NCBI GenBank assembly: GCA_951406725.2
Contig: OX597822.1
Coordinates: 18,662,001-18,726,000, forward strand
Source of the DNA: Octopus vulgaris
Taxonomy: Eukaryota
Length of the DNA stretch: 64,000 bases
Direction of reading: 5' to 3'
Below the pieces are notes generated by a model. The model was not told the origin of the DNA. It was given only the letters and a program-made list of their open reading frames with translations, and did no database searches. Positions within the stretch are counted from its first letter, which is position 1. Each line of letters starts with the position of its first letter. Shown here in pieces: positions 3,957-62,958 of this stretch. Position numbers and translations under genes: made by a program.

Positions 3957-4176
3957 TCAATATGTGACCTCGTGAGTACCGCTGGCGATTTTTTTCCCTC
4001 TGTCTTCCCTTCTCGGGATCTTTCCTTCTCCTCTGCTTCCAACGAAGAGCTCCGCTCGAAACGTTAAACCTTCCTTCTTCCCTTCTTTCCTGAGTGTCCA
4101 ATAATACTTTATTTGTTCCATGTCTTCGCGTTGCTGTGTTTTTTTTTTTTTTTTGTGTTTTCTTGTTTGGATTAAC
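3957..4176 (+). mobile_element. Short TA-flanked non-coding element carrying a hammerhead-like motif (Penelope pLTR-derived?)
   Basis: About 220 bp CpG-containing block bounded by (TA)n on both sides; contains the motif at 4035-4069. Confidence 0.55.
4035..4069 (+). ncRNA. Minimal hammerhead-ribozyme-like motif, degenerate core
   Basis: GCTT-CCAACGA-A-GAGC-TCC-GCTC-GAAA-CG-TT-AAAC. Stem II is GAGC/GCTC, stem III is the palindrome AACGTT, stem I pairs 3 of 4. Core CUGAnGA reads CCAACGA. Confidence 0.55.
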
Positions 4177-4795
4177 TATATATATATATATATATATATA
4201 TAAATATATATGTATATATATATGTGTGTGTGTGTGTATGTGTGTATATATATGAATGCGCGTGTATGTATGTATGTATGTAAGTAAGTGTGTGTGTATA
4301 TGAACTTGTGTGTGTTTATTTGCAATTCCTCTACTTTGAAAATCAGTGGTTACAAATGGTGACATTATTGACATTTTCTTTGTTAACTAATCATTTGCTG
4401 GCTGAGCACTTTAGGAGATGTGAGGAACATAAAATCACTTAGTTGAAAAACAAGCAAGGGTTAGTGAAAGGAAGGGCATCCATCTATAAAACAATGGCTC
4501 AGTATTATATTTGTCTAACCTATGCTACCATGGAAAAATTATTAATGTTTGGCGAGTTGAAAAAGAGGGGATTGAATCCTTATGAGTTGCCTTTAGGATG
4601 GGAAACCTTACCAGGCATAACCTTCACTGTCTTGCAATGAAGGATTTATTGTTTATCTGTCTTCTCCAAACACTGCAATACATCACTGCAAGCAAGAACA
4701 CTTATATGTCAGTGGTCCAGTTCACCTGAACAGCAATTAAACAATGTAGAGCAGTAGAGATTCAAACTACATCACTGTTAAGTGTTTTGTTAGTT

Positions 4796-4860
4796 TACAG
4801 GTGTAGATAAATGGTAAAGAAATTCTACAGGTGTAGACAAATGGTAAAGAAATTCTATAG
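4796..4860. repeat. 30-bp tandem duplication
   Basis: tacaggtgtaga(t/c)aaatggtaaagaaattc occurs twice. Confidence 0.85.
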
Positions 4861-6539
4861 GTAATCATAAGACTCCAAATTCAGTTTCAATGCAAAGCAA
4901 CTTGCACGAATGTCTTTTACTATAGCCTGGAGTCCACCCAAACTTTACAAGTGAATTGGGTAAATGGAAACGGTTTGAAAGTCTGCTGGATAGAATGTAC
5001 TTGTCATTTCAGAAGTTCATGTTTCTTCAAGCTGGATGCTGTATACCACCTTTTTATCTCTTCCTTTTGTCAAAAATATTTTCTCCATCCCCACCTTCAC
5101 CTCTAACTCCATTAATTATTGTATTATTTACTTCACCGATCCCTTCTTCCCCAGAACATTATCTCTTTGGAATTCCTGTACTGCCCACAATGTGTGTGTG
5201 TTTTGGGTGGGTGGTGCAGGGTTTTTCTCTGCAACCATCAACTGAATCAACTTCAGTAATGCCAGTAAGTGTTGTCACAATGTGTCAGACTGATTTTCCA
5301 GGAGAATTCCATTAATGGTACACATATCCATCAAATATCCAATCACAAACATTCTAGTTTAATAAGAACATTCCGTTCATGAAAACATTTGGAACAGTCA
5401 TATTCAAAAACCAATGAAGACCTCTGATTAGATGTTTTGCAGCACTGAGCCAAGAATATTTTATTCATCTCAGACAAAAGATAATTCCTGAAATATCAGA
5501 ATCCTCTTCTCTTCACAGCATACTAACTTATTCAGTTCACAAACAGCATTGCCCCCCCCCCCATAAGGACCCCCAGTAAACTGCTTTGCCCTAACATACA
5601 CCATACAACCACAACAATGTTGAGGTGTGTCCTGACAATCCATTAAGACCAAATCTATGGTACCATATTTATTCTATTTAGAGCCGCTCGACATTTTTGG
5701 TCAGTGGGGATATTAAACATTACTGCTAACTTAATATAATCTTGTTCTGTACACATTTCCATTATTCATGACCATGCCAAATTGTCATTATATTCCTCAC
5801 ACATACGCAGCATGAATATTAACCTTCTAATCAGCTGTCGTAGTTTCTTACATACATTTCATCCTTCACCACTCATTGATTTTTCAGACTGGTTAAAGGA
5901 CCAGCTGCTTACTGACTTAAGTATCAATCTATTTATTTCATTGATTACAAAATTCCATAGGGACCAGCATGTAATTGAAGGTAGCTTTCTGCAATAAAAG
6001 CCTGATAGTTATTCCCCTCGCAGCTGGCTAAACTAAAGTAACGCATGATTGAATGTCCTTCCCAGAACATTCAATCATGTGTCACAACATAACATTTGCA
6101 ATGGATGTAAATTCTTGGAGCAAGAGTTTATAGTCTAGAAGTTTACTCATTCAGTTATTTTGCTTTTAATTACTGATTTAGAGAAGATGCATGATTGAGT
6201 AGTAAGGCAACTGGACTCTCAGACATAATGTTGTGAGTTCAATTCTCTGTTTATGAGTGTTGTATTGTCTGTAGGCAAGGAACTTAACTGCATGTTTTGT
6301 GCCTGTCTCCTCAACTGGAAAGAAACAGAATTAAAAGAGAATGCCCAGTTGACATCAAGCTAGTGTCATAACCCCAAACCTTCAGGCCCAAAGAGTGATA
6401 CGTCCAGCAGTGAACTGCCATATCCAATCTTTACCATTTTTTTTACTGATTCTACTATCATTAATTGAACCACATGGAAATCTTTTTTTTTTTACTTTTT
6501 TTGATGAGAAACATTAATTTACATAGCATTATTCTTATA

Positions 6540-6750
6540 GGAAGCTGACAGAATCATTAGAACATTGGCCAAAATGCTTAGCAGCATTTCTTCCAGCTCT
6601 TTATGTTGTGAATCCAATTCCTTCCAAAGTCAACTTCCTCTTTCATTCTTTTGGGGTTGATTAAATAAAGTATCAGGCAAGGACTGGAAGTGATGTAACT
6701 GACTTACCCCTTCCCCTCAAAACTGCTAGCCTTGTTTCAAAATTTGAAAC
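6540..6750 (+). mobile_element. Degenerate SINE (family of 61187-61417)
   Basis: gctgacagaatcattag...aatgcttagc...tttcattcttttggggttgattaaataaagta parallels the younger copy. Confidence 0.65.
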
Positions 6751-7162
6751 CATTATAACTCGTTAAAAATAGTTAATGATTTTAGCATTGATTAGGTTTC
6801 ATTAGGAAGAGAATGCAGCTGAAAACCACTTGCCACAATAATTCAAGTATATCACCATTGTGATTGGCATGTCTGTGTCCACTTTTTCCATGCTAGCATG
6901 GGTTAGGCAAAACTTCTTGAGGCAGTATTCTACCACTAGACACTCTACTGATTCCAGTGAGGAACTGTATTCCATATTTTTATATGATTGACTTGCCAAG
7001 TTACCAGACATTTTGTTTATGCTAGAAATAATGAATGTCACAATTGGCACAATTGCTCAAATGGCTCCATTTTCCTCTGTAAACATGCAGAGGTAAACAG
7101 ACACATACATGCACACACACACGTGTGTGTGTGTGTGTTTATATATATATATATATATATAT

Positions 7163-8150
7163 TGATATGGAGGTCAGTTCGGAAACTGAGTGCTACGACC
7201 CACTTTTGTGATTTGGTGTCAGGGAGACGGGTAGACCTTTTGTCCTGTCGGTTTTTGGGGAGGTTTATGTATTCGGAAGAGACCTTTGGCCCTGTTCCAG
7301 TCAAGGAAAGTTTGAGAAACCACCCCTTTAAAATGCGACGCACTGTGAGCTTGCGGTCAGTCGGAGTCAGTCGTCAGTCGGGAACAGCGCGAGTCAGCAG
7401 CTGGCAATGGGGCAGTTTTGGCCAGTGACAGGAGTGATACGGATGGTCAGCCAAGAAGGTGGCAATGGCGAAGGCAACTACATCGTTGAGAAAGACAGAC
7501 AGACAGTGAGAGGACTGAGAGCGAGAGAGAGGGATTACGGCGGATAGAGGGCAGTGGCTATTATGGTAGGAGTTTCTGAAATTGTTGCAGACTGGAAAGA
7601 AACATTCGGTAAAGTTTTGTTTGTGTCTTTTGGTTGTTGTATTTTGATGTGAAATGTAAAAGAAAGAATTGATGTGTTAAAAAAAAAAGGGGAAAGAACT
7701 GTGAATTAAGGAAAAGAGGAAGAAAAGAAATGAGATTATGGCGTAAATTGTGAACTGTGTTGAAAAAAGAGAAAGAGAAAGACTTTAATGTATCATGAAC
7801 ATTATTTGATTGAACTGTTCTGATTTGTCTCTGAACTGTATCTGCATGCTTTGATTTTGTTGATTCTGCTGCATGTATTTTCTTTGATGTATTTGATGTT
7901 GTAATGATTGTCATAAACTGTTTTTAAATGTAAGCCAATTGCCTTCCGCCGTGTCTCTGTATCTCTTCCTGCTGTTGTTGTTCTCTCCAGTCGCCGGTTC
8001 GTATCCGTTGCCCCCCCCTCCCCCCGCACCAAGTCCTCTCTTTCTGTGTGGCGAATTCTCCGTTCGATTGGGCCGGTCAATCGTCGTCACTCGACTTGGT
8101 AGGGTCCCGGGTTTCCGAAGAGTTTGGGCGACGGCAGGTGGTACGTAACA
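7163..8150 (-). mobile_element. Putative solo LTR (988 bp) inserted in a (TA)n microsatellite
   Basis: TG...CA termini (minus strand TGTTACG...ATATCA), ATAT on both flanks, CpG-rich relative to its surroundings, no credible coding capacity. Strand is tentative. Confidence 0.6.
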
Positions 8151-8515
8151 ATATATATATATATCCCTGAATGGAGGGATTGTATATTCAATTTACTCAA
8201 TGAGTTTCCATGCAGTTATTATTTATCAAATTCTCTTCATAGGGCATTGGTCAACTCAGAGTTGTAGAAGAAGATATCCCCCCCAAAAAGCCATACAGTG
8301 AGGTCAAGCCTAAAACCTCGTGGTTGCAAAGAAAAATTTTTAATCACATGGCCATGTCTTCACCTTTTAACTTTGAAGAGCCAATCCAAACCATGCTGGT
8401 TTCAAAAACTCATGTAACAATTATATTCAGTCTTTTCACTTCATTTCATTTCTTTATTCATCATCCTTGCTTATATCATTCATTCAATGGCTTTCATTCA
8501 GATGTAGGTTTTATA

Positions 8516-9937
8516 GCATAACTACAGATTCCTGCCCCCCCCCCCGATTTTTGGATGTTCATAACTTTCAGAAAATTGGATATGTTTTAATGAAATTTTC
8601 TACTACTATGTGTTATATCATGTAGATTCCGAATATACAAAACTTATGGGGGAAAGTGTTTTAGGAGGGGCTGGGGCGGGGAAATTTCACCGGTGTCCAC
8701 TTCAATTCGTCTTAACTTTCCAGAAAATAGATATTTTTAATGACATTTTCTATAAATATACCTCGGACTATGTAGCTTCCGAGAACATAAGAATTTTGGG
8801 GGAAAACAATTGGGGGTTACTTTTGAGGACCGTTCCCCACTCGAGGAACGCATAAAACGGAGAAAATGAAATTCATTTTTTCTGTTCTGTGCGTTTGTGC
8901 ATCCGTAGATTTCGACTGACACCGCAGGCAATGAAGCTGTCACCAGGAAACTCGTTATGCTAAAAATACCAGCTAAAGGTCCAAACGTTTCTAACAGAAA
9001 GACACTGAATGGAATAATTCTCCGTTTGAACTTTTTTAATTATATATATAGGATCGGATCTTTTCTTTTTGAAGGCCAGATTTTCCTAGTTAACTAAAAA
9101 ATTTGAAACTTCGTATACTGGTAGAATGTGTCAAAAGAAAACATTATTGTAAATGAAATTGAAAACAAAATTGTTATTCATAACTTAAACGTAGTTTAAT
9201 TTTTACGAATTTTAACCAATGAAATCCCAACATCTTCGAATTTTAACCAATGAAATCCCAGCATTGCTGCGTTATCGATATTGATAAAGAAATATAGCAG
9301 ACGCACCACACAAACATTTGCACGAGCACATAGTAATTAATATATAAGCGTACACACACATACAAACGGACATATACATATACGCACACAAGCAAAAATA
9401 CACGTTTTGCCACTTGCCGCAACAAATTTGCACAAAAGGTAAATAAACCAGAATGTTTCATCGTTTCGGGGTCGTTTTTAGCATAACGAGTTTCCTTGTG
9501 ACAGCTTCATTGCCTTCGGCTTCAGTCGAAATCTACGGATGCACAAACGCACAAAACGGAGAAAAAACAAAACATTGACGACTTGTTCCGAAACACACCC
9601 GAGTGGGGAACGGTTCCCAAAAGTAACCCCCAATTGGTTTCCCCCAAAATTCCTATGTTCTCGGAAGCTACATAGTCCGTGGTATATTTATAGAAAATTT
9701 CATTACAAAATATCTATTTTCTTGAAAGTTAAGACGAATTGAATTGGACTCCGGTGAAATTTCCGAATTTCCCCGCCCCAGCCCCTCCTAAAACACTTTC
9801 CCCCCATAAGTTCTGTATATTCGGAATCTACATGATATAACACATACTCGTAGAAAATTTCATTAAAACATATCCAATTTTCTGAAAGTTATGAACATCC
9901 AAAGTCGGAGTGGTGGGGCATGAATCTGTAGTTATGC
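8516..9937. mobile_element. Non-autonomous foldback DNA transposon with about 450-bp terminal inverted repeats
   Basis: 8516-8966 is the reverse complement of about 9475-9937 (gcataactacagatt... / ...aatctgtagttatgc; aggaaactcgttatgctaaaaa / tttttagcataacgagtttcct). Confidence 0.9.
9056..9265. mobile_element. One-arm fragment related to the GGATC-terminal foldback MITE, nested in the 8516-9937 spacer
   Basis: ggatcttttc...aacttcgtatactggtagaatgtg...ttttaaccaat matches 13499-13680. Confidence 0.7.
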
Positions 9938-11091
9938 CGGTTAAATTATTATTTACATCATGATCTGACAATGAAGTTTTTTTGGCTTTTTTACAGCCGG
10001 TGTGTTTGTGTAACGCTACTTTTATATGTTTCCTATTTGGAAATAGATAATAAATATATTTTATTTTCGAAGAAGGAATCTATATTGATAAACACGTCAC
10101 TTATAACTTACTTATTATAAGCTACATAAACGCCATGGCCAGAAATATATACTCTGAAATGCTAACGGACATTTTTTGCGTGCGTGTATGGCGAAGATAA
10201 ATAAATTCGTGTTCTTTTAACCGCCATAAAAAAATACAGTCATAATTGCAGAAATAAATTTCACTAACAAGGTGAAGAAAGAGAAAATAATTACTACATT
10301 AGTTTTTTTAGCATTTATAGTACAATTGGAAAGTAAAGTCATTTTGTCGTAGAGAATTACGATTTAAAATCCACACTAAGCTAATCCCTCATACTAACGA
10401 CTAGAGTTCACAACAGTTCAAATAAGTCTTGTTGGATTTTTAGACATGGCGTAAAAAAATAGCCAATGTGTCAAGGAGTGAGTGTCATGGAATGTAGTAA
10501 CATCCAAATATAACTGAGTAATTTCCCCAAAATCAGGGATTTTATAACTGCTCATATCCGAATTCTAAGAACCGTATTTCATGAAAGATTTCATTGACGA
10601 AAGTTTAGAATTCGTATCTGGGCAGTCATTTTAACCAATAGCATTACCAACAATTATGCTTGTTCTTCGGGCAGACGACCATTACGCAATATTGCCGCCT
10701 TTTGTGACTTGATACACATTTAAGAAGACTGATGGAGATAGAAAGGTTAAGTCAATGTTTTTTCAATTTGTTTCCTGCCAACTATGCCTTGGATGTTGTA
10801 CAATTGTCATAAACTTTTCAAATAAATAGAATAGGATGTCTGTATTCTTATGTGTAGTCTAGTTCCAGGTCTTAATATTCTTCATGATAAAGCACAAAAG
10901 TTAAATGATGAAGTTAAAACAGATTACACTAACAATAATTTTTTTAATGATGGTAATTACACATAGTATTAATGAAGCATTATTTAATTTCAATGTCTCT
11001 CCTTTTGATCATGTGTTTCAGTTCTAGTAACTCAAAAGCTGTCCATTTCAATCATTTTATAGTTCAGCACTTCCTTTCACAGAAAGGCATA

Positions 11092-13479
11092 TCTATATAT
11101 ATAAAACTGTAGTTGTGTGAGTGTCTGTCTCCTACGATTTAGATTCCTAACTCCTCCCACATTTTGCGGTGCAGTTTAACCAAATTCGGGTATCTTATAG
11201 TCGTGATTAATATCGAGCCCGTCTGGCTATTAGCGCGCGTCTACGATTTTAAAAATAATTTAACATAATTTTTTATTCCATTTTAATGCATAATTTTTCG
11301 TGTGTCGATGGCGGCGGAGTTGGCGTCCACGCTCAAACACCTGCACCTGTGTTTGCTTCTCCCCCTTCTTCCCTCCCTCGTGAAGCTGTGGGGAAGGGAG
11401 TTTAAGGAAATCAACGTCGTAATGCGTTGTCGAGGAGACCAGCGTTCTTTTAGAACAACGACTTCATGGCTTGAAGACACCAAAACAGAAATGGCTAAGA
11501 AAGCCCGAATTGGCATCTATAAGGGAAGTAAGTCTCTAAAAATGCTTATATAGTTATTTCCCTTACAAACCCGAGCAACGCCGGGCGATACTGCTAGTCT
11601 ATATATATAAAAATGAAGTTGTGTGAGTATCTGTCTCCTACGATTTAGATTCCTAACTACTCCCACATTTTGCAGTGCAGTTTAACCAAATTCGGGTATC
11701 TTATAGTCGTGATTCATATCGAGCCCGTCTGGGTATTAGCGCGCGTCTACGAAATAATTTACCATAATTTTTTTCCATTTTAACGCATATTTTTTAAATA
11801 AAGGGCTCACACCTGCACCTGTGTTGCTTCTCCCCCTTCTTCCCTCCCTCGTGAAGCTGTGGGGAAGGGAGTGTAAGGAAATCAACGTCGTAAAGCGTTG
11901 TCAAGGAGACCAGCGTTCTTTTAGAACAATGACTTCATGGCTTGAAGACACCAAAACAGAAATGGCTAAGAAAGCCCGAAAGCAAATTCTACAAAATCGG
12001 GAAACACGCCACACAGGGAAAGTTTCCCGTGCAAATAATTTGCACAACCGAATGTTATAGTTGTTGCACAACTTTTACTTAAAAAATATTATCCAAACAC
12101 AAACTTTTGAAGGCAATATTGTATGGCGATGGTACTTGTGAAATATGGTAATGGATTTAGTAGCCAAAAGGAGAGAGCAGAGGCATAGTGTGGAGGCGGT
12201 GGTAGTCGCAGCGGTGGTGGCGGTGGTGCTGGTAGTGGTGATGGTGGTCATGGTCGTGGTGGTCGTCGTGTTTGTAGTGGTGGTGGGGGTGGTGGGAGTA
12301 GTGATGATGGTGGTGGTGGTGGTCGTGGTGATGATGGTGGTGGTGATGGTCATGGGCATAGTGGTGGTGGTGGTGGTGGCTGAAGCTGTCGTCTGGGTTC
12401 TTCCAATTTTTTCGTGTGTCGGTGGCGGCGTTGGCGTTCATGCTCGCACCTGCACCTGTGTAGCTCCTCCCCTTCTTCCCTCCCTCGTGAAGCTGTGGGG
12501 AAGGCAGGGTAGGGAAATCAACGTCGTAAAGCGTTGTCAAGGAGACCAGCGTTCTTTTAGAACAACGACTTCATGGCTTGAAGTCGCCAAAACAGAAATC
12601 GCTAAAAAAGCTGAAACAGATCCACAAAAACAGCAAAAACTGCCACACAGGGCAGGTTTCCTGTGCAAACAATTTGCACAACCGAATGTTTTAGTTGTTG
12701 CACAAATCTTTATATATAAAAGTGAAGTTGTGTGTCTGTCTCCTACGATTTAGATTCCTAACTACTCCCACATTTTGCGGTGCAGTTTAACCAAAACCGG
12801 GTATCTTATAGTCGTGATTCATATTGAGCCCTTCTGGGTATTAGCGCGCATCTACGATGAGTCTACGATTTAAAAAAAACTTACCATCATGTTTTCCATT
12901 TTAATGCATTTTTTGGCTATTATATAAGGGAAGTAACTCTCTAAAAATGTCTGCGATGAGTCAACGATTAAAAAAAAAAATTACCAACATTTTTTATTAC
13001 ATTTTTAATGCATTTCTTTGCTATTTTTTTGCTATAACTCTCTAAAAATGCTTATATAGTTATTTCCCTTACAAACCCGAGCAACGCCGGGCGATACTGC
13101 TAGTCTTTATATATAAAAGAGAGGTTGTGTGTCTGTCTCCTACGATTTAGATTCCTAACTACTCCCACATTTTGCGGTGCAGTTTAACCAAAACCGGGTA
13201 TCTTATAGTCGTGATTCATATCAAGCCCTTCTGGGTATTAGCACGCGTTTATGATGAGTCTACGATTTAAAAAAAAATTTACCATCATTTTTTCCATTTT
13301 AATGCATTTTTTTTGCTATTATATAAGTAATGATGAGTCAACGATTTAAAAAAAAATTTACCATAATTTTTTTTCCATTTTTAATGCATTTTTTGGCTAT
13401 TTTTTTGCTATAACTCTCTAAAAATGCTTATATAGTTATTTCCCTTACAAACCCGAGCAATGCCGGGCGATACTGCTAG
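11092..13479 (+). mobile_element. Head-to-tail array of non-autonomous Helitrons (4 5' ends, 3 3' ends)
   Basis: 5' TC(T)TATATATAAAA at 11092, 11598, 12707 and 13104. 3' hairpin CCCGAGCAA(C/T)GCCGGG followed by GATACTGCTAG ends at 11597, 13103 and 13479. Flanked by A and T, no TSD. Confidence 0.9.
12185..12380 (+). repeat. (GTG)n-like degenerate trinucleotide tract inside Helitron unit 2
   Basis: Direct reading; source of the poly-V/poly-H/poly-T ORFs. Confidence 0.9.
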
Positions 13480-13498
13480 TTACAAATATTCCTGTCAC

Positions 13499-18707: not shown

Positions 18708-18757
<50 letters not shown>

Positions 18758-19362: not shown

Positions 19363-19496
19363 TAGGTGTTTAGGGTAAATCCCAGCTGTTTTCTCTCAAA
19401 ATACATCTGCTTACTCCATTATTACAATCAATATGTATCCATTATTATTGTTGTATGTAAATCAAAGCACATATTGAAATTGAGATTATGGAAATA

Positions 19497-26116: not shown

Positions 26117-26153
26117 GTATGTATATATATATGTATATATATATATATATGTA
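25841..26153. repeat. (TA)n/(TATG)n microsatellite
   Basis: Direct reading. Confidence 0.97.
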
Positions 26154-27400
26154 TAAAATTACAAATTGAGATAGGGTTGTGAGTGCAACCCACCATAGGA
26201 TAACATATATCCAATATACTGCCAGTAAAGCACCCACAAAGTTAATACATAAATGTTAAGAATTGCGATGCAGTTAATTCATTTATAGTATTATGAAGGT
26301 AAAATGTTTTACCACAAATTCATAATACAAAATAAGAAAATGGAGAAATATACCTTAATCAATAATCAACTACCAGATAATACCCATTCACATAATTTAT
26401 TAACCAACTACATATGAACATCAAGGTCAAACATAATAGTACAGAACAAAACAGTGCACATCAATGAGTAATATGATACAATAAGTACAATATGTATAAA
26501 TAAATATAAATAAATATTAATATAAACTTTATCTTACAGCTGTTTCAGCCATATAGATATGAGTATCTCATTATGCTCATATTAGCCAGGTGTGATAAGT
26601 TAATATGTGGTTATAAATGAGACACTTACAAATATATGCCAAGGCCTCTTCAGAGATTATAAAGTACAATCTAAATATGAATATCAGAGAAGGTACACCC
26701 ATACAAGAATGAGTACATATACATAATATACACATACATATAAGTGTATATACACATGCACCTATATATATATATATACGTATATACATAATAATGTATA
26801 ATAACATACATACATATATATATAAGGTTACAGTTAGTCAAATCAATATATTAGAATATTACAATATACAAACATACACATATCCATATGCAAATGTACA
26901 TATACAAAGTCAAGAGTTCATTATATCAAGTTACAAAATGCCATTAATATTATTAATATTATTATTATTATTAATAATAATAATAATACCAGTAAAATAA
27001 TATGTGCATCACGCCGTTCACAGTACATATTACATGGAAAAAATCCCATAGAATACATCAACAGCATAATATAGTAAAATAGTAACATAATAATACTAAT
27101 AATACAGTACAATACAAAACATTATAGATCAGCAATCACATATAAAATGAAAAATGAAAAATATTGATTTACATCATAGCAAAATCCAGAAGTGTACATG
27201 CATATAAACGCATACAAGTCAGAGTTTTGACGGTGATATATATATAGTAGTAAGTTACTCATTGATGTGCACTGTTTTGTTCTGTACTATTATATTTGAC
27301 CTTTATGTTCTTATTTAGTTGGTTAATAAATTATGTGAATGGGTATTATCTGGTAGTTGATTATTGATTAAGGTGTATTTCTCCATTTTCTTATTTTGTA
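26154..27400 (-). mobile_element. TA-flanked Penelope pLTR-like element with a 146-bp inverted repeat and a hammerhead
   Basis: 26326-26471 is the reverse complement of 27255-27400; hammerhead at 26532-26656. Confidence 0.65.
26532..26656 (-). ncRNA. Type I hammerhead ribozyme with about 90-nt loop II insertion
   Basis: Minus strand TCT-CTGAAGA-GGCC-(about 90 nt)-GGCT-GAAA-CAGCTG-TA-AGA. Core intact, GUA cleavage triplet. Confidence 0.75.
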
Positions 27401-27450: not shown

Positions 27451-30400
27451 AAATGCGAGTATTCTGCCAAATGCGAACATTCTGCCAAATGTGAATTTTC
27501 TATTCTGCCAAATGCGAGTTTTCTTTTCAGGTACTTGAAGCTAGTGTCCCCCACCACAGGGTCTTACGGGCCCATACCTCCCACACCCTCAGGGTTGGCA
27601 CTCTCAACGTTGGCACACTGAAAGGTAGGTCTAGTGAGATTATTGAGATGCTTGAATGGAGATGTGTTGATATATGCTGCATCCAAGAAGTAAGGTGGAG
27701 AGGAGGTTCTGCTAGGTTCCTCACAGGCAAAGAACGCAGGTACAAGATTTTCTGGGCAGGGAACACTGACGGGGTCGGGGGTGTTGGTATATTTCTTTCT
27801 GAAAAATGGGTAGATAAAGTAATTGAGGTAGTCAGTGTATGCGACAGAATACTTAAGATTAGATTAATGCTTCACCATGGGTTAGCAACCATTATATCGG
27901 CCTATGCCCCTCAGCTGATGGATAGAAACACCAATTCTATGACACCCTACTGCAGACTACCTCGTTGACAAACGACAGGGACCTTCTTTTTGTGGCTGGT
28001 GACTTCAATGGACATGTTGGACAGCATACAGGGGCTTCCATGGCGTACATGGAGGCTACGGCTATGGTTCCTGCAACGAGGAGGGAACCAGGCTGCTGGA
28101 GTTCTGCGATGCAAATGATCTTATGGTTTGCAATACTAACTTCAGGAAAGCTACCAGTCACCTAGTCACCTACCAATTGGGCCGATATACTAGCCAAATT
28201 GACTACATCCTTGCCAGAAAAAGAGAAAGATGGTTGCTTATAAATGCCAAAACCTTCCCAGGTGAAGAATGTACCCCACAACATAGACTGGTAGTTAGTG
28301 ACTTTAGGATCAGGACTAAGTGGACGCTCAGAAGATGACCAACATGGAAAAGAAGGGTCTGGAAGCTTAAAGATCTTGCGAATGGACAGAGATTTAGAGA
28401 CATATTACTCGAAACCTTTGACGAAATAGATGAGGATATAGATTCACATAGTGTAGAAGACAACTGGAGGTTTCTACAGGACAACCTGCTGAGAGCCACT
28501 GACCAGATCTGTGGATGGTGCAAAGTCCTCTCTTGACCCAAAATAACGTGATGGTGGAACAATGTTGTAGACAGGGCTATTAGAGAAAAGAGACAGGCTT
28601 GGAAGGACTGGAAGAATGGAGGTAGCAGGGAATTATATCAGACTGCCAAAAGAGAAGCTAGGAGACAGGTTTATTTAGCCAGAGGGAAAGCAGATAAGAA
28701 AAAATTTGCCAATGTTCTGCACCGCGAGGACCAAAGATTTGAGGTATTTCATGTTGCAAGACAGTGTGTGAGAGAGAATCGTGATGTGTTCGCATGGATG
28801 ATGGTACCCTTCGACAGGGTGCCCTGATCCCTTGTCTGGTGGTCAATGAGGAAACTAGGGATAGATGAATGGTTAGTGAGAGCTGTGCGAGCCATGTACA
28901 GGGACGCTGTTAGTAAGGTGAGGGTTGGCGACGAGTACAGTGAAGAATTCCGGGTAGAGGTAGGGGTCCACCAAGGTTCAGTCCTCAGCCCCCTCCTATT
29001 TATCATAGTCCTCCAGGCAATATAGGAGGAATTCAAGACAGAATGCCCCTGGGAGCTCCTCTATGCTGATGACCTTGCTCTAATTGCTGAGTCACTATCA
29101 GAACTGGAGAAGAAGTTTCAGGTGTGGAAACAAGGATTAGAATCGAACGGCCTTAGAGTCAACCTAGCTAAAACTAAAGTCCTAATAAGTAGGAAGGTAG
29201 ACAAATCACAAACGCCTTCAAGTAGATGGCCCTGCTCGATCTGTAGAAAAAGCGTAGGTAGAAACTCTATAAGATGCTCCAAGTGTAAGCTATGGACACA
29301 TAAGAGGCGCAGCAATGTCAAACGAAGGCTAACTAGGAAGATAGTTTTTGTATGTGGCAGATGCTCAGGAGCAATAAACATTGAAAATGCACAGAGACCA
29401 ACTTTGCCACAATCCAGGGAGAAAAACTAGTAGTTGATAGCTTCCGTTACCTAGGTGACCAAGTCAGTAGCGGGGGCGGGTGTGCTGAAAGTGTAACTGC
29501 TAGAGTAAGAATAGCTTGGGCAAAGTTCAGAGAGCTCTTACCTCTGCTGGTGACAAAAGGCCTCTCGCTCAGAGTAAAAGGCAGACTATGACGCATGTGT
29601 ACGAACAGTCATGCTACATGGCAGTGTAACATGGGCCGTGACTGCTGAGGATATGCGTAAGCTTGCAAGAAATGAAGCCAGTATGCTCCGATGGATGTGT
29701 AATGTCAATGTTCATACTCGACAGAGTGTAAGTACCTTGAGAGAAAAGTTGGACCTAAGAAGCATCAGTTGTGGTGTGCAAGAGAGACATTTGCGCTGGT
29801 ATGGTCATGTGGCGAGAATGGATGAAGATAGTTGTGTGAAAAAGTGCCACACCCTAGCGGTTGAGGGAACCTGTGGAATAGGTAGACCCAGGAAAACCTG
29901 GGACGAGGTGGTGAAGCATGACCTTCGAACTTTAGGTCTCACCGAGGAGATGACTAGAGACCAAGACCTTTGGAAGTATGCTGTGCGTGAGAAGACCCGG
30001 CAGGACAAGTGAGACCATAACCCATGGCCTCTACCTGGGATGTAGCCAGTCCACTTATGCATACCTTTCCTTCTTGGGACACAAAACTCTACTTGCAAAG
30101 ACCTGTTGAAGCAAGTGAAAATCAAAATCAAAATCGATCAACATGAATGGAAATTGTAGCTGTGATACCAGTGCCGGTGGCACGTAAGAAAACCATCTGA
30201 TCGTGGCCGTTGCCAGTGCCGCCCAGACTGGCTTCCGTGCCAGTAGCACGTAAAAAGCACCATCCAATCTTGGCCATTGCCAGCCTCGCTTGGCCTCCGT
30301 GCCAGTGGCACGTAAAAAAGCACCCACTACACTCTCGGAGTGGTTGGCGTTAGGAAGGGCATCCAGCCGTAGAAATATTGCCAAATCAGACTGGGCCTGG

Positions 30401-31346: not shown

Positions 31347-32487
31347 AACCCACAACTTACCACAATTGCTTAATAAATATGAGCCCTTCACTGTGTAAGC
31401 ACAAATTCTTCTGCACTTTTAAATTCTTTCATAAATCTAAAAGTTCACCCCCCCCCTGAATATCACCCACATACAAACCAATGATCATTAACACATTCCT
31501 CTCTTCTATATCTCCTTATATTTCTATATCTCTTATTTCTACCTTATATCTTATATCTCTTTTATCTACCTTACCATTTATATCTCTTTTATCTCCCTTA
31601 CCATTTCACCTTATGAGATAAATATTCTATAATTTATCCTTAATTCATTTTTAATCCTCAACCCAATAAATCCCCTAATATCTAACTCCCACACATAAAT
31701 AAACATTCAACTAGCTCCTCCATTCTCGACTACCTACACACCCATAACCCCATTGCTAAAATTAAACTCTACAGCCACTGACCTTAGCCAGAAAGGACAC
31801 AAGTATTTACTACTAGATTTCCTCCTTAACATGTATAGACTTTAAGACTACCACAAACACCTACAGCTCTCTTTAAATTCCTTTCATTTTGCCCTATTTT
31901 TTTTTTTACCCTATCTTCCTCTACCTCCTCATCCTCTCTCTTATCTTCTTGACTACCCTGTACACAATTCTTAGGCACCATACACCTATACACCTTACTT
32001 TATCCTAAAGCCCATCCTTAAATCCCCCCCTCACTCTATCTACTTCTGTTTCTATTTCTTTTCTTTCCTTTTACCACTTAATAGCCACCTCTGCTACCAT
32101 TCTGTTATTGAATGCTGATATGTTCACGTCAATTTTCTCTGGATGTATATTATATCAGGATTTTAACCTACATGGATCTATGCAGGATTGCACCTAAGGA
32201 CTTATGCTCTTGTTTCTACAACATCGGAAAGTTGAACTATGAACTTTTATGCTTCTTTTTTCTTCTTTCTCTCCATCTCCTTATTCCTTGACTCCCTTCC
32301 TCTATGTCGTCATCTCATTAATATATACATTTCTCATTTTCCCAATTTTTCCCTGTTTATCTCTGATGACATGATACCCCATACTTGGGGATATCCCAGA
32401 AACAGCTGTAAAACTTTGAATTTTTTCTTATAATAATATTGTATATGACTTGAAATGTTTGCCTTGCCTTAGTGTTTGTTGTCCTCC
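31347..32487 (+). mobile_element. Penelope-like 3' end/pLTR remnant with hammerhead
   Basis: Begins with LLNKYE..[fs][12 protein letters not shown], resembling the end of the GIY-YIG ORF at about 58920-58990. Pyrimidine-rich UTR; hammerhead at 32360. Confidence 0.55.
32360..32413 (+). ncRNA. Type I hammerhead ribozyme motif (stem bases partly decayed)
   Basis: TCT-CTGATGA-catGATACCCC-atactt-GGGGaTATCcca-GAAA-CAGCTG-TA-AAA. Confidence 0.75.
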
Positions 32488-42246: not shown

Positions 42247-42647
42247 AAAGGGAATGACCAAGTTTTTAAAAATCTGCTGGATCTCACTCATAAGGGAATC
42301 TTACATTGCTTATAAACTCTATATTTGGAAGGACTCATATTAAACTCTGTTGGACTTTTGGATTTTACTCAAAGGATATTGGAAAATTGCATATATACCA
42401 TTATGCCTATAAAGCAGATTTACAAATTCAATACCCATACATAACTTACATCTATTTTCTTTCCTCCACCCCACTCTCTATTTTGTATCACATCGACACT
42501 AACTATGACTTAATTTTTCCTCTCACACCATCTCTGATGAAGGGATATAATTAATAAATATCCTGGAAACAGCTGTAAGACCTTCTATCTATAAATGCTC
42601 TAATATCTATACAGCCTTGGTTTTTTTATCTTATCACGCAAAAAATT

Positions 42648-51395: not shown

Positions 51396-51440
<45 letters not shown>

Positions 51441-54561: not shown

Positions 54562-54920
54562 GATTCCTGCTGAAAACTCCTCTGTCATTTTTACAGAACC
54601 AATGAAACAAAGTTGTCAAGAAACAATGGTATTGACAACCCCACATCCTCAAAAACTACTGGTCTCATGCCTAAATTCAAAGTAATAATAATAACAATAA
54701 ATAATAATAATTGTTTCAAACTTTTGTACAAGGTCAGCAGTTTTAGGGGAATGGCGTTAGTTGGTTGATTACATTAAGCCTAGTACTTCACCTTGAACAG
54801 ATGAATAGGGAAAGGCAAAGTTGACCATGTGGGGATTTGCATTCAGAACATAAAAAGCCAGAAGAAATACTGCTAAATATTTTGTCTGACACACTAATGA
54901 TTCTACCAGCTCACCACCTC

Positions 54921-54951
<31 letters not shown>

Positions 54952-55044
54952 GTAACAACAATAATATTGAGTTCATGCATGATACCCAAGCTGAACATCA
55001 TGAGGGAAGTGTGGCAACTGTTGTCGCAAAGAAGGTGAAATCAG

Positions 55045-56020: not shown

Positions 56021-58178
56021 AAATGATTACAACCCATGTAAAGGTTTTCTTTTTTCTTTTTCCTGTGTCATTGCTGCAATGGATTGACAATTTACATTAG
56101 AACGTGTGTGCCAAATTTCATTATCCTACCTTAAGTTTATTTTGAATCAATGGATAAGTCTTTCTGGGACACCCTGTCTATGTTTGGGATAGTTCTATCC
56201 TCTCTAACCTCAGTCAACTACCCTGTGGCAAATTCACTAGAAGAGAGCACTTCCTATGTCATCATCACTTTCCTTTCCAGATGGAACTTGAAAAAATCTG
56301 TGAGGGCTTGACAAAAGAGGTAGGTGTCTACCCTCTTTTGCCTCAGCTATCACACTAAGAAAATCTATTTGCCCAACCATGTGGCAATCTTCATGCAGAG
56401 AGGAAGTCTTCATGATGGACTCAGTTAGCAGTCATATCTGCCCTTGACATGCCATAAATTAACAAGGCTTAGACACTGTACGAGCAGTAGTAGCATTAGT
56501 GTAACAAGCAAGAGAGATAAAAGGATGAACAATAGAGACATGGGTGAGAGTGGTGGGTTCTGCACATTTTTCTGTCAAAATGCACACAGAAGGTTTTGGT
56601 CATTTTCAAGCTATGTTTGATGATGCTCGCCCAAAGTGTTGCACATTAAACAAACTCTGAACTACATGGTTATAAAATGAACAATCATATCTGGCTCTAA
56701 CACCATGGTCCTATTACCTTCAGTCATCAGCCAGCACAACCACAGTGAAATAAAAGTAATTTGAACTTAAAACTTCATGACTAAGCAGACAGTCAGTCCA
56801 GCACTTGGTACATGCAGCTAATTCTGTAAACGAGAGCCTCAGTTCTAATAAGACAACAGTGATTATTACTTCAGTCTACCACTCGAGAATTTACAAAGTG
56901 TTAAAAATCACAATTGATTTTGCAGCAAGTATTACAACAGAAGGAAGCTTTCAATGTATCAGAGTTTAAAACATTGTGAAAAATAAATTACTTATTAACG
57001 CTTAAGAGATGGAAGAAATTAGCATGTGAACTCTCCTGCTATTGTTGTTCTGCTCTTTTAAGAATGACTGCACCAAGACAACAACTAATATTTTCCCCTC
57101 AGGAATATTTTTTTAATATTTTTCTCTTTTATTTTTTGTTTTTGTAGAAACCTAAAAAGGGAAAAAAATTGTAATTTTTCCTTGTTTTTTTTTCTCTTTT
57201 TCAACATTTCTATTTCTCTCACTCCCTCTCTCACACTTTCTCACTTTCTTTTGAAATGTGTATTTGAAATTCATTACTTAGTAATTAGCTGTTAATAGGC
57301 TATTGACATTTTTCAGAATGGAATTGAATAGAAAACTATTTCATCCTCTGGCAGAATGCAAGGAGGCAACAGAACTCTTCCTGTGTGTTACTGCATTAAC
57401 AACTGACTTAACAATTCAGACATGGTTAAAGCATTTCAAAAGAGGAAAAAAAAAATGTAATTAAATTAAATATAGGAACAAAAATTTTAATTTACATGTC
57501 TTATTTTTAAATGATTGCTGTAGGACTTGCCACAAGCAAGCTGCATCCTACTGAAAGAGGTTTTTTTACTGATGGTTCATGAAATATTAAAATGCAACTC
57601 AGAACAGAAGACAAGTGTAATGTATTGTCTTCTTTCTAAGAAGGAATCAATAATTATTTTTTTATGGTATGCAATATATACTTACATATATATACATATC
57701 ATACAAACATACATGCATATATATTGATAGATATAATGGATAATAAAGCGAATGGTTTACTGGTAAAGCATGGTCACTTTCAGAGTGATTGTTAGGTAAA
57801 TAACAAATGAAAGACAGAAGATGGAATATAAGAGAATTTATTATTAATCACAACAATTGTTTCAGCACATCTAGCATCGAGTCCTCTTGGAATGATGCTC
57901 TAGCTAGGGCTGGGTACCATGATTAAATTCAATATATACAAGAAACAGGCATAACCAACATTGATAATTCCTACAACTGCAATGCACATTGTATACCACC
58001 ACAATGTTATCATTTGAGAAATCACTTCGATAAAGAAAACAGGCCAAAAAGAATTGGTCATGTCAATGAACTACCAACAAAAACTCATAGACACATGCGA
58101 CATGATAATCCAACTGCTTGTTCCAATCCTGTACTACACACTCAATCAAATAAACCAAATAGCAGATATAGGAATCCG

Positions 58179-58999
58179 ATTGTCCTCTAGTTCAACCCAA
58201 TTTTTGGTTCGCGTGTTTCAACCAGGATTGCTGGAAAATTTTTTGCTGCTTTGGACAAATGTTCTCCTAAATCTAATTGGTATCATGCTATTTTTAATCA
58301 ACACTACGTGAAGGTATCCTACACCAACTCTGCTAATTTAGAGCAGCTTATACATTACATAAACAATAGCAAAATGCAGCAAAGGTTCAATAACCCACCC
58401 ACTGGATCTAGCAAATATTTGCATCTAAATACCAACCAAAGAGATGTAAACCGCATTGATAAACATCAACTTAAACCAATGTGTAGTAGTAGATATATTC
58501 ATGGTGCAGCTAGCGTGGTAACAATGCCGGTAAATAGAGTCGGGTCTGCCTTATATACAAATAAATATGATAAATGCTCATGCAGAGAGAAATCAAAATG
58601 TCCTTTGATGAATCCCTGTATGAGTAGAAATCCTGTATATAAATGCACCATGCACACAAGGGGAGGGCCCAATGTTTACATTGGACAGATGGCTAATTCA
58701 TTTAAGAATCGTTATCATAACCATGTTGCCAGCTTCAAGACAATCAATAAGAGACATTCAACATCTTTGCCATATTTTGTATGGTGACTGAAGGAGGATA
58801 AAATGAAGTACAGCATAAATTGGTCCATAGTAAGGTACGCGAAACCATTCAATATAATTTCCAGGTGATGTCATCTCTGCTCTGAGGAATCCCTGTCTAT
58901 TCTTTGGACTAACGAGAAGATCATTAATAGAATTTCTGAACGACTCTTGAGATACCTACACACATATAAATGTACTTTGGCACAATGCAGTGGGAATGA
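58179..58999 (+). pseudogene. PLE RT-thumb/linker + GIY-YIG endonuclease (in-frame stops)
   Basis: *FNPIF..RVSTRIAGKFF...IFN..YVKVSY...CSCR..KCPL..PC...VYKC...YIGQ..NSFKNRYHNH..SF...TSL..FVW*LK...WSI...*CHLCSEE. Confidence 0.88.
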
Positions 59000-59397
59000 A
59001 TTTTTGAGTAACCATTAACTTAATTAAATTAATTTAATTTAATTTAGGGTATGGATAACTTAAGTTTACTTTTAACCTCCTCATTCTTATAAACACCAAG
59101 TAAATAACTAACTCGCTTTGTGGACATGGGTACACCAAACCTTGTGTGTGCGTATGCTCACGTTTGTACTGATTCTTGTATGAGCATGTGTACTCATGCC
59201 ATGCAGCTTGCCCAACGGTTATTTTCAATACTTTTCTCACAGGATTACATGTTCGTTTTCCTTTATGTCATCTGCAATTTTATTTTTGATCTTCTATATA
59301 AATGAAGTTATTTCCTCTGTCTGGCTGTTTTCCTCTCTACAAAACAGAAAGTTACATTGTGGAACATTCATTTTAACGAGTTGTTTTTATTTATCTA

Positions 59398-59499
59398 TCA
59401 CCCAACGAGATTCATCTGCACCTAAATGCTCCTGAACTACTTATTGAGTGTCTCACCCAAGAGGATTCGGTGCTAGATGTGTCGAAACAATTGTTGTGA
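59398..59499 (+). ncRNA. Hammerhead motif in PLE pLTR, core mutated (CCAACGA)
   Basis: TCAC-CCAACGA-GATTCATCTGCACC...GGTGCTAGATGTGTC-GAAA-CAATTG-TT-GTGA. Confidence 0.7.
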
Positions 59500-59702
59500 T
59501 TAATAATAAATTCTCGTATATTCTATCTTCTGTCTTTCATTTGTTATATATTGATAGATGTGTGTACATGTGTTTATGCATCTATCTTTCTATTTATCTG
59601 ACCATCTTTCTGTCTGTCTTTCTATCGATTTACGATATATATATATATATATATATAGCAAATGAAAGACGGGAGGTAGAATATACGAGAATTCATTATT
59701 CG

Positions 59703-59806
59703 TCACAACAATTGTTTCGACACATCTAGCATTGATCCTTCATCGATGGAACAATCAACAACTGGTTCAGGAGCAACCAGCAGTGCAGATGTATCTCGTC
59801 AGGTGA
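59703..59806 (-). ncRNA. Type I hammerhead ribozyme with extended stem II
   Basis: Minus strand TCAC-CTGACGA-GATACATCT-GCA-(about 50 nt)-TGC-T-AGATGTGTC-GAAA-CAATTG-TT-GTGA. Core intact, 4-bp stem I, GUU triplet. Confidence 0.85.
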
Positions 59807-60193
59807 TAAATAAATGCAACTTATTAAAATAACACTTCCACAATGTAACTTCTCATTTTTTAGAAAGCAAAGCAGCCAGATGGAGGAAATATCTCCATTT
59901 ATAGAGAAGATCAAAAATAAAATTATAAATGGAAAAAAGAGAAATGAACACACAATCCAGCAAAAAGAGTATTAAAAATAATTGTTTACAAATATGGATG
60001 TATACACGTCTTTGGGGAAGCTGCATGGCGTGAGTACACCCACTCATACAAGCATCTACGGAAATGTGAGCATGTGCACATGTGAGGTTTTGTGCACTCA
60101 TGATCACAAAGCAAATTAACTATCTGCTTGGTTTTTGTAAGAATGGGAATGTTAAAAGTAAACTTAAGTCATCATTACCTTAAAGTAAATTAA

Positions 60194-60580
60194 GTGGAGG
60201 TGCAATGGCCCAGTGGTTAGGGCAGCGGACTCGCGGTCGTAGGCTCGCGGTTTCAATTCCCAGACTGGGCGTTGTGAGTGTTTATTGAGCGAAAACACCT
60301 AAAGCTCCACGAGGCTCTGGCAGGGATGGTGGTGGTCCCTGCTGTACTCTTTCACCACAACTTTCTCTCACTCTTACTTCCTGTTTCTGTTGTACCTGTA
60401 TTTCAAAGGGCCGGCCTTGTCACTCTCTGTGTCACGCTGAATATCCCCGAGAACTACGTTAAGGGGTACACGTGTCTGTGGAGTGCTCAGCCACATACAC
60501 GTTAATTTCACGAGCAGGCTGTTCCATTGATCGGATCAACCGGAACCCTCGTCGTCGGAACTGACGGAGTGCTTCCATCC
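60194..60580 (+). mobile_element. tRNA(Arg)-like-headed SINE with 12-bp TSD
   Basis: AAAGTAAATTAA at 60182-60193 and 60581-60592. A box tggcccagtgg, B-box-like gtttcaattcc, TCG at the anticodon position (reminiscent of the octopus OR SINEs; unverified). Confidence 0.88.
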
Positions 60581-61186
60581 AAAGTAAATTAAATTATGTT
60601 AATAGTTACTCAAAATTCATTCTCACTGCATTGCATTGTGCATGTAGGTATCTCAAGAGTCGTTCAGAAATTTTATTAATGATCTTCTCGTTAGTTCAAA
60701 GAATAGACAGGGATTCCTCAGAGCAGAGATGACATCACCTGGAAATTATATTGAATGGTTTCGCGTACCTTACTATGGACCAATTTATGCTGTACTTCAT
60801 TTTATCCTCCTTCAGTCACCATACAAAATATGGCAAAGATGTTGAATGTCTCTTATTGATTGTCTTGAAGCTGGCAACATGGTTATGATAACGATTCTTA
60901 AATGAATTAGCCATCTGTCCAATGTAAACATTGGGCCCTCCCCTTGTGTGCATGGTGCATTTATATACAGGATTTCTACTCATACAGGGATTCATCAAAG
61001 GACATTTTGATTTCTCTCTGCATGAACATTTATCGTATTTATTTGTATATAAGGCAGTCCCGACTCTATTTACCGGCATTGTTACCATGCTAGCTGCACC
61101 ATGAATATATCTACTACTACACATTGGTTTAAGTTGATGTTTATCAATGCGGTTTACATCTCTTTGGTTGGTATTTAGATGCAAAT

Positions 61187-61417
61187 TTAGGCGAGCTGGC
61201 AGAAACGTTAGCACGCCGGGTGAGATGCTTAGTGGTATTTCGTCTGCCGTTACGTTGTGAGTTCAAATTCCGCCGAGGTCGACTTTGCCTTTCATCCTAT
61301 CGAGGTCGATAAATTAAGTACCAGTTACGCACTGGGGTCGATGTAATCGACTTAATACCTATGTCTGTCCTTGTTTGTCCCCTCTATGTTTAGCCCCTTG
61401 TGGGTAATAAAGAAATA
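61187..61417 (+). mobile_element. Young SINE (Meta-domain-like) with 17-bp TSD
   Basis: GGTATTTAGATGCAAAT at 61170-61186 and 61418-61434. The empty site is visible in the paralogous PLE at about 58416-58432. Confidence 0.93.
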
Positions 61418-61716
61418 GGTATTTAGATGCAAATGTTTGCTAGATCCAGTGGGTGGGTTATTGAACCTTTGCCGCATTTTGGTATTGTTTATGTGATGTA
61501 TAAGCTGCTCTAAATTAGCAGAGTTGGTGTAGGATACCTTCACGTAGTGTTGATTAAAAATAGCATGATACCAATTAGATTTAGGAGAACATTTGTCCAA
61601 AGCAGCAAAAAATTTTCCAGCAATCCTGGTTGAAACACGCAAACCAAAAATTGGGTTGAACTAGAGGACAACCGGATTACTATATCTGTTGCTGGGCTTA
61701 TTGATCGAGTGTGTGC

Positions 61717-61759
<43 letters not shown>

Positions 61760-61888
61760 CATACACCACACACACACACACGTACACATATGGGTGTGGG
61801 GAGGTGCATGTTTGTGTATGTATGAATCATGAGTTTGATTCTTCATCAGGCAACCCAGTATGACCCTGGACAAAGGACTTCATTTTAA

Positions 61889-62109
61889 CCCTTTAGCATT
61901 TAAACCGGCCATATCCGGCCAAAAGTATTCTGCCTGTTTTATGGTCAAACTGGCCAGATCTGGTCTCTTACACCAACCCTACAATATTGTTTTAAAAATT
62001 AACAGCTACCTCATTAAAATCTCATAGCTACAAGATAATGCATGATTAATTCAAAACAAAGTGGATGAAGAAGCATTCATTTTGGCAGAATAATGCGAAC
62101 ACTAAAGGG
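61889..62109. mobile_element. piggyBac-like MITE
   Basis: TTAA|CCCTTTAG...CTAAAGGG|TTAA. Confidence 0.88.
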
Positions 62110-62504
62110 TTAAAAGGGAACAGTCTGTCAGTTGAAACAATTACTTGTCAAGTGCTGCTGCTATCCTCTCTCTCTCTCTTTCCTTCCTCTCTCTCTCTCT
62201 AGCTCTCTCTCCTCCCTCTCTTTCTCATTGTGATATCCTGGATGTTCTATCGATATAGGGTGGCATGGGCAAGATGGTGGTTATGTCTTCTTATGCTTAC
62301 ATAGCCATGATATATACTTTTAATTCATACTCACTTTCAAATGGTGGTTGTAGTTATATACATGTGTGTGTGTATTTATACATGTATTTTGTACGCATAT
62401 GAGTATACACACATTTATATGGTATTCTAAACACAGATATATATTTGTGTGTGTAAGAAAATATGATGACAAAGGTATGAACAATTATCTTATGACATTC
62501 ATTA

Positions 62505-62958
62505 GCTTACAGCTGTTTCTACTGCAAGATTCAGTGAACTCATAGATGAATGTTTACTCTTTACTCTTTTTTACTCTTTTTACTTGTTTCAGTCATTTGA
62601 CTGCGGCCATGCTGGAGCACCACCTTTTAGTACTTATTCTATCGGTCTCTTTTTTTGCCGAACCGCTAAGTGACGGGGACGTAAACACACCAGCATTGGT
62701 TGTCAAGCAATGCTAGGGGAACAAACACAGACACACAAACACACACACATATACATATATATACATATATACGACAGGCTTCTTTCAGTTTCCGTCTACC
62801 AAATCCACTCACGAGGCATTGGTCGGCCCGGGGCTATAGCAGAAGACACTTGCCCAAGATGCCACGCAGTGGGACTGAACCCGCAACCGTGTGGTTGGTT
62901 AGCAAGCTACTTACCACACAGCCACTCCTTGAGTAACATCTTATAGCTTCATCAGAGC
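62505..62958 (-). ncRNA. Hammerhead ribozyme split by a SINE insertion in loop II
   Basis: Minus strand GCT-CTGATGA-a-GCTATAAGAT-...[SINE]...-ATCTTGCAGT-a-GAAA-CAGCTG-TA-AGC. Stem II pairs 9 of 10. Confidence 0.75.
62553..62928 (-). mobile_element. SINE (abundant family) with (GAGTAAAA)n tail
   Basis: Matches 17016-17400 with a small internal deletion. Confidence 0.9.

Follow-up and report, generated by a model that had tools for sequence, protein, structure and literature searches.

The window analyzed here, 64 kb of the 2.8-Gb genome of Octopus vulgaris (contig OX597822.1, forward-strand positions 18,662,001 to 18,726,000), contains a series of small hammerhead ribozyme motifs lying in remnants of Penelope-like elements (PLEs). 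The window is AT rich, with a repeat content of at least 44%. A sequence-only reading of this DNA had listed seven hammerheads and a separate 3′ half, and all eight stretches were recovered at or beside their listed positions (Table 1), but only three of them, designated 26653−, 42534+ and 59802− by position and strand, look intact. The other five are broken: two carry G5A, a core change predicted to be inactivating, stem I is lost from a third, a repeat insertion splits the fourth, and of the fifth there is only a 3′ half.

Hammerhead motifs of the window

The full type I core (C3 U4 G5 A6 N7 G8 A9, G12 A13 A14, A15.1-U16.1 and H17, in the usual numbering) is present in 26653−, 32363+, 42534+, 59802− and 62955− and is lost through G5A in 4039+ and 59402+. 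The layout is one of three helices open at stem I, with stems I and II present in 26653−, 42534+ and 59802−. A reduced, palindromic stem III is present as ACGT, ACAGCTGT or ACAATTGT, and in the window motifs it either needs a partner or consists of just 2 bp. At 4035 the stem III is the 4-nt ACGT rather than the AACGTT quoted earlier, which includes A14 and the cleavage base; the family of this motif has a GTTT/AAAC stem I, and the copy at 4039 has a GUU site. An Rfam scan of the window gave no hammerhead among 119 matches at E ≤ 5.

Motif frequency exceeded that of shuffled sequence. A strict descriptor (core CTGANGA, palindromic stem III, stem I of at least 3 bp and domain II of at most 120 nt) detected 3 motifs in the window, compared to a mean of 0.067 (maximum, 1) in 60 block-wise dinucleotide shuffles. 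Raising the limit on domain II to 600 nt gave 4 motifs versus 0.28 in shuffles, and relaxing the core to CYRANGA gave 4 versus 0.23. The proposed density of one motif per 9 kb is a local excess and not the genome norm, as five strict patterns predict 0.62 matches per 64 kb while 5 were seen (P = 5e-4, for a window that had been picked for its density). All three ACAATTGT motifs of the window belong to a single composite PLE locus, which bears on this local density.

Association with PLEs

A motif of the 77-nt family, whose stem III is ACAATTGT, lies ∼0.7 kb 3′ of a broken open reading frame (ORF) with a CxCX5C linker and GIY-YIG in the window, and motifs of this family were found downstream of the ORF on the same strand in 13 of 20 protein-match loci. 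The CxCX5C linker reads CSCREKSKC in the window and CTCRSKNQC and CNCRIKENC in two fetched loci (L181 and L197; fetched loci carry L numbers throughout), and DKG is changed to DKT in the reverse transcriptase (RT) of L099, a relative of the 77-nt family. The CxCX5C linker, GIY-YIG and DKT are listed features of Hydra-clade PLEs (PMC8557442). Hydra-like endonuclease remnants were also present upstream of ACAGCTGT motifs in 5 of 50 fetched regions (L181, L191, L197, L237 and L238). By their protein motifs, the ACAGCTGT and ACAATTGT families are thus assigned to Hydra-type PLEs, DKT having been seen for the 77-nt relative only. Pfam gave no match for the PLE frames of the window, the sole matches being to an unrelated long interspersed nuclear element (LINE) at 27.5 to 30 kb.

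The motif at 4035 belongs to a different family, F12. In longer F12 copies, the repeat is preceded by a CA-rich untranslated region (UTR) and, further upstream, by an ORF that encodes a CX4CX2C linker, DKG and GIY-YIG. Of 30 loci retrieved with this UTR, 27 have the F12 repeat downstream; the end of the endonuclease is visible in 8 loci and a piece of RT in 2. The parent motifs in L266 to L293 read CSRSRCNTC, PADKGG and YIGQT, suggestive of a Neptune-type layout (Neptune or Nematis). Another Neptune-type ORF, beside F12 in L221 and L224, was rejected as the parent because none of 25 copies of this ORF has a sense-strand F12 downstream and because it has a U3-A8 motif of its own. The proposal of several distinct PLE families with a common type I scaffold and palindromic stem III, and with a domain II differing greatly in length, was supported. 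Remnants of other PLE families were observed next to hammerheads at L117, L136, L186 and L191, consistent with shared (TA)n targeting.

Most F12 copies are ∼220 nt long with similar ends and lie between (TA)n tracts. Such copies could be non-autonomous, retrozyme-like units spreading as small circular RNAs, and animal retrozymes are described as derivatives of PLE end repeats (bioRxiv 10.64898/2026.07.22.740005). This origin is considered highly improbable, as copies are solo or in inverted pairs and longer F12 copies reach the PLE ORF; head-to-tail tandem units were absent from the window, with few close direct pairs among the fetched loci.

The composite locus consists, in order, of an inverted 5′ piece, an endonuclease remnant, the end repeat and an inverted second arm, so that an inverted, 5′-truncated copy adjoins the element; a similar arrangement is present in 26150-27200. 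The arms of the inverted locus (58149-61702) are 98% identical in the endonuclease part and 79% in the UTR and end repeat, a contrast possibly due to conversion between inverted arms, chimeric insertion or an assembly effect. Motifs 62955− and 62519− proved to be a single motif, with a repeat insertion that extends its domain II to 429 nt in all; we take this 376-nt repeat to be similar to a short interspersed nuclear element. Elsewhere in the window, a decayed LINE with remnants of an apurinic/apyrimidinic endonuclease and RT (27495-30012, +) lies just beyond the 26.2- to 27.2-kb PLE fragment, and a low-complexity trinucleotide tract (12142-12753) has on its flanks a short, directly duplicated stretch that resembles coding sequence, present also at 11758-12060.

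Table 1. Features of the PLE loci and their hammerheads, in window coordinates (PLE types according to protein motifs)
Feature	Position	Strand	Remarks
End repeat of PLE family F12 (Neptune type), 5′-truncated, between (TA)n tracts	3956..4176	+	Boundaries shared with other copies; parent ORF in longer copies
Type I hammerhead of minimal form with a GUU site; CCAACGA core (G5A) at 4039, 12-nt domain II, ACGT stem III	4035..4069	+	Predicted inactive
Hydra-type PLE 3′ UTR/end-repeat fragment, inverted piece at 5′ end	26150..27200 (approximate)	−	Endonuclease remnants upstream in relatives L181, L191, L197
Intact-looking hammerhead; stem I ATCT/AGAT, core CTGAAGA at 26653, stem III ACAGCTGT, GUA site	26531..26657	−	
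Decayed hammerhead; core CTGATGA at 32363, domain II 29 nt, stem I down to 1 bp	32359..32414	+	
Intact-looking hammerhead; core CTGATGA at 42534, domain II 25 nt, ACAGCTGT, GUA	42530..42581	+	
Inverted 5′ end-repeat piece of composite PLE; only the 3′ half of a hammerhead (57863−)	57797..57891	−	93% identical to 59457-59550
Broken 3′ part of Hydra-type PLE ORF: thumb, CxCX5C linker, GIY-YIG	58149..58990	+	Open frame 58191-58787; no Pfam match
77-nt-family hammerhead; core CCAACGA at 59402 (G5A), ACAATTGT, GUU (family GUC)	59397..59500	+	Predicted inactive
Intact-looking 77-nt-family hammerhead; core CTGACGA at 59802, long domain II stem, GUU	59702..59807	−	Fold z −3.7
Inverted second arm of endonuclease region, interrupted by another repeat	60643..61702	−	96-98% identical to 58149-58960
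54-nt-family hammerhead; stem I GCT/AGC, core CTGATGA at 62955, ACAGCTGT, GUA; split by later insertion	62503..62960	−	
High-copy repeat, 376 nt, inside domain II of 62955−	62553..62928	−	37-55 fetched loci match

Copy numbers and pairing of the palindromes

Genome counts were compared with reversed-pattern controls. The 14-mer GAAACAGCTGTAAG gave 14,584 matches versus 18 in the control, and the F12 core gave 16,266 versus 0. Joined to GAAACAGCTGTA, the core CYRANGA was detected 5,431 times (control, 3) at a spacing of 5 to 35 nt, 2,940 times (control, 11) at 40 to 70 nt and 2,251 times (control, 5) at 75 to 105 nt, three counts that may include the same copies twice. A strict pattern for the 77-nt family yielded 375 matches (control, 0). 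An additional F12-like family (L296 to L307), with the core CTGTAGA, a GUA site and intact stems, is termed here the A6U family; it yielded 7,512 matches (control, 0), none of them in the window. Also noted was a young PLE family of the Neptune type (L241 to L265), with endonuclease copies 94 to 99% identical and 18,483 first-look candidates; a hammerhead-like motif with a U3-A8 core and a CCGG stem III palindrome lies ∼0.1 kb past its ORF stop.

The 8-nt palindromes gave no monomer fold and a stable predicted homoduplex. Predicted pairing energies were −11.1 kcal/mol for the ACAGCUGU homoduplex, −6.4 for ACAAUUGU, −2.2 for the mixed duplex and −1.7 for ACGU, in agreement with the suggestion that motifs with a shared palindrome could pair, and with pairing restricted to such motifs.

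As more than 10,000 pattern matches have the same 8-nt palindrome, scattered copies could act on host RNA, with ACAGCTGT motifs pairing across families and cutting read-through transcripts. The sequence-only reading had raised this effect for any host transcript, and the window gave it no support. Five of the eight motifs are broken, and any two of the intact copies differ in strand, palindrome or both. ACAGCTGT motifs on the same strand form pairs separated by 10 and 36 kb, and one member of each pair is broken. Host exons were not detected: 84 non-repeat frames of at least 62 amino acids in the window had no Pfam match above the cut-off, although short exons could escape this search. Furthermore, copies decay at CpG like neutral DNA. 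An action on host RNA is thus viewed as more improbable even than a retrozyme-like origin, and the window copies are ordinary decayed repeats and likely passengers without a host role.

Core variants

Alterations in the core were tallied by hand in the first 100 rows among the matches listed for each group. For F12 (16,266 matches), there were 71 CCGA, 25 CTGA and 4 CCAA cores, while other CpGs of this motif decay by 3 to 5% each way. The excess of CTGA is due to a separate set of copies with linked differences (20 versus 22 copies compared), which is older than the CCGA set (mean pairwise distance, 0.103 versus 0.067; nearest-neighbour p = 0.043). The 77-nt family had 55 CCGA, 25 CTGA and 20 CCAA cores, and since decay to CTGA and to CCAA is symmetric (p = 0.55), the founder of this family had C4. 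Its cleavage site is GUC, a feature overlooked in the sequence-only reading, and has decayed to GUU in the window copies. In the 100-nt group, CCGA was present in 70 of 73 copies of derived subfamilies and CTGA in 21 of 27 copies of the subfamily found in the window. A tree of this group (30 of 48 rows, near-identical copies among L001 to L030 having been dropped) placed C4 as one clade nested among U4 rows (support 100/99; midpoint root); L015, a CCGA copy of the window's subfamily, was outside the tree because its stem III is mutated. The short ACAGCTGT group, a mixture of subfamilies, had 37 CCGA, 45 CTGA, 14 CCAA and 4 CTAA cores; CCGA is present in most copies of the 42534 subfamily, unlike 42534+ itself. 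The A6U family had U6 in 96 copies, C6 in 4 and A6 in none. In the C4 clade of the 100-nt group (L181 to L192), position 11.1 was also seen to be C, giving a G-C or A.C closing pair, in contrast to the U or A of U4 relatives; two new CpGs thus arose on nearby branches, a possible compensation.

From these sequence comparisons, the F12, 77-nt and 100-nt tallies argue that several lineages (F12 and three Hydra lineages), belonging to two PLE types, were founded with U4C. The sequence-only reading had also overlooked that the founder core of several families is CCGANGA. Both CCAA cores of the window are explained by CpG decay of CCGA, 4039+ being a G5A derivative of the family core CCGACGA, and the CTGA cores of 59802− and 42534+ are likely to have arisen in the same way, in 59802− from CCGACGA, with a return to canonical U4. 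A-to-I editing was rejected as the source of U4C because T-to-C and C-to-T changes are about equally frequent in the subfamily-diagnostic columns of F12. F12 was covered in assembled contigs of four presumed RNA runs, with T at position 4 in ∼10 to 26% of the depth; such contigs cannot show the strand, level or ends of F12 transcripts.

Structure of domain II

The length of domain II is fixed within each subfamily and ranges from 12 to 105 nt across subfamilies. To call these domains unrelated was too strong, as those of 21, 25, 29 and 49 nt share their outer arms, which makes growth at the tip of an old hairpin the likely route of lengthening. The 25-nt domain of 42534+ has a 7-bp stem with one unpaired base on each side. 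Domains of 91 to 110 nt fold as rods: 36 of the 46, many closely related to each other, have z values under −2. The 100-nt domain of 26653− is rod-like (fold z −3.1). Further long-domain subfamilies were noted at L245 (85 nt, fold z −6.1), L240 (59 nt, ACAATTGT) and L071 (79 nt).

Covariation was assessed with 22 aligned members of the 94- to 105-nt group and a hand-set structure of 31 pairs. In this structure 83.6% of cells are paired and double changes affect 13 of the 31 pairs, with 53 double-change cells versus 22 in shuffled data (a value reached in 0 of 500 shuffles), and the structure outperforms all slid controls. The covariation among paralogues that had been anticipated was thus seen in stems I and II across the 22 relatives, and the ∼100-nt domain II is modelled as a rod with compensatory changes.

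Probable cleavage of the element RNA

PLE hammerheads have been reported to cleave weakly and in dimeric form (PMC4209133). The hammerhead of an anole PLE cleaves only with the element's protein, cleavage is dispensable for insertion in vitro, and RNA-seq gave no cleavage-site reads (PMC11167929). U4C lowers activity in vitro yet sufficed in a viroid (PMC3088659), while A6C reduced Mg2+-dependent activity >10,000-fold relative to Mn2+ in another hammerhead (PMC7151607). Together with the pairing of the palindromes, this literature led to the reading that the motifs described here are type I hammerheads of PLE end repeats which act as slow, dimer- or protein-aided cutters of their own RNA, with a probability of about 0.8. 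The RNA of a parent element would be cut slowly, on the element's own tandem transcript, either in dimers formed through the palindromic stem III or with the element's protein. U4C and A6U variants would be tolerated since transposition would need no fast cleavage, and the genomic copies left behind would be 5′-truncated and mostly decayed.

Several points weigh against this interpretation. Cleavage, dimer formation and a lower activity of U4C and A6U are carried over from the literature by analogy. The clade names rest on motifs and not on a tree with reference elements, and linkage to an ORF was not shown for the 29-nt subfamily of 32363, the A6U family or 45 of the 50 ACAGCTGT regions. A tree of 28 short-domain copies lacked resolution, and founders with other core changes would have escaped the search patterns, in which most core positions were fixed. 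The fold is less clear for domains shorter than the rods, with z below −2 in 5 of 20 (36 to 70 nt) and 4 of 14 (71 to 90 nt). For the rod, the structure was itself built by folding individual sequences of the group on which it was then assessed, with a shuffle that takes no account of relatedness, and the number of pairs with a double change was reached in 52 of 500 shuffles. RNAalifold on the raw alignment of the rod group (A1) gave no consensus rod and 3 spurious pairs.

An explanation that overlaps with slow, partner-dependent cutting is that slowness itself was selected, attenuated (U4C, A6U) or domain II-gated elements keeping more full-length template and out-replicating their U4 parents. 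The C4 sets are younger and larger in F12 and the 100-nt group, in two PLE types, C4 persists against the CpG pressure that turns it back to U4, and the two largest families counted, F12 and A6U, have noncanonical cores; moreover, uncleaved RNA was the main in vitro substrate for another PLE (PMC11167929). Set against this, many U4 subfamilies amplified too, and branches as long as those leading to the C4 clades (0.14 changes per site) would, over many lineages, be expected to include several T-to-C changes fixed neutrally. Selection for slowness is regarded as doubtful.

Somewhat less probable still is a loss of catalysis, with the fold kept for protein binding, priming or RNA stability while the core erodes. 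A6U is present in a family of 7,512 copies, A6C being strongly impaired in Mg2+ (PMC7151607), and Naiad PLEs spread without canonical hammerheads (PMC8557442). However, G8, G12, GAAA and the NUH site are kept in the families seen, a retention itself favoured by ascertainment, and a compensated U3-A8 core occurs elsewhere.

Slow, partner-dependent cutting could be extended to a more speculative proposal, also doubtful, in which slower hammerheads evolved repeatedly, the rod of domain II is a protein-binding switch and the ribozyme is a protein-gated timer of retrotransposition, with tens of thousands of copies missed by descriptors. In this proposal, U4C would have risen to dominance independently in a Neptune-type and several Hydra-type lineages and A6U in another family, while domain II grew into a conserved rod of up to 105 nt. 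If true, there would be motifs in animal genomes invisible to CUGANGA descriptors and to Rfam.

Comparison with known systems

Although nearly all canonical PLEs have a hammerhead, its activity in vitro is weak, and insertion did not require it in the one system that has been reconstituted. The role of PLE hammerheads could be investigated with matched natural pairs from this genome: U4 and C4 sisters, short and 100-nt domains II, and the A6U family. Strict descriptors undercount such motifs, the largest families counted here being mostly or wholly missed. Lunse, Weinberg and Breaker (RNA Biol, PMC5785218) reportedly described small PLE-associated hammerhead variants with a reduced palindromic stem III that cleave as dimers, according to the title and a review account, and C4 cores may already be among these variants. 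A palindromic stem III is a known trait of PLE hammerheads; a domain II of 12 to 105 nt fixed by subfamily and noncanonical founder cores appear undescribed, the comparison with Lunse et al. being by description only. Literature searches returned no report of C4-core or long-stem-II PLE hammerheads and no cephalopod PLE hammerheads beyond Hydra-1_Obim.

The hammerheads of Hydra-clade PLEs (Craig et al. 2021, PMC8557442, File S2) are similar in being of type I near the 3′ end, with (TA)n targets; several have ACAG..CTGT stem III arms, many have an unpaired base on each side of stem II, and their elements encode the same DKT and CxCX5C motifs. All 26 rows of the published Hydra table have a CTGA core, a loop 2 of 3 to 10 nt and a loop 3 of 1 to 3 nt, in contrast to the loopless 8-nt palindrome of stem III, domain II of up to 105 nt and CCGA in several lineages observed here.

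F12 fits the consensus layout of the minimal hammerheads (min-HHR) of metazoan PLEs (Cervera and De la Pena 2014, PMC4209133), sharing with them the extra A after A9, G10.1-C11.1, an ACGU stem III, a short stem I, high variability between families and an occurrence in thousands of copies, either solo or as inverted pairs. A U3-A8 variant was already among the published min-HHR, and a third family here has U3-A8. The min-HHR consensus is CUGANGA, compared to C4 in the dominant F12 subfamily and U6 in the similar family (PMC4209133). The same positions are altered, with lower activity, by U4C in a viroid (PMC3088659) and A6C in phage Bcep176 (PMC7151607); those were described as rare single examples, whereas here families of thousands of copies each were founded with such changes, the base at position 6 being U. 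Animal non-long-terminal-repeat retrozymes are also short non-coding repeats with a type I hammerhead and ties to PLEs, but no tandem arrays were seen here and the copies are, where tested, truncations of ORF-bearing elements.

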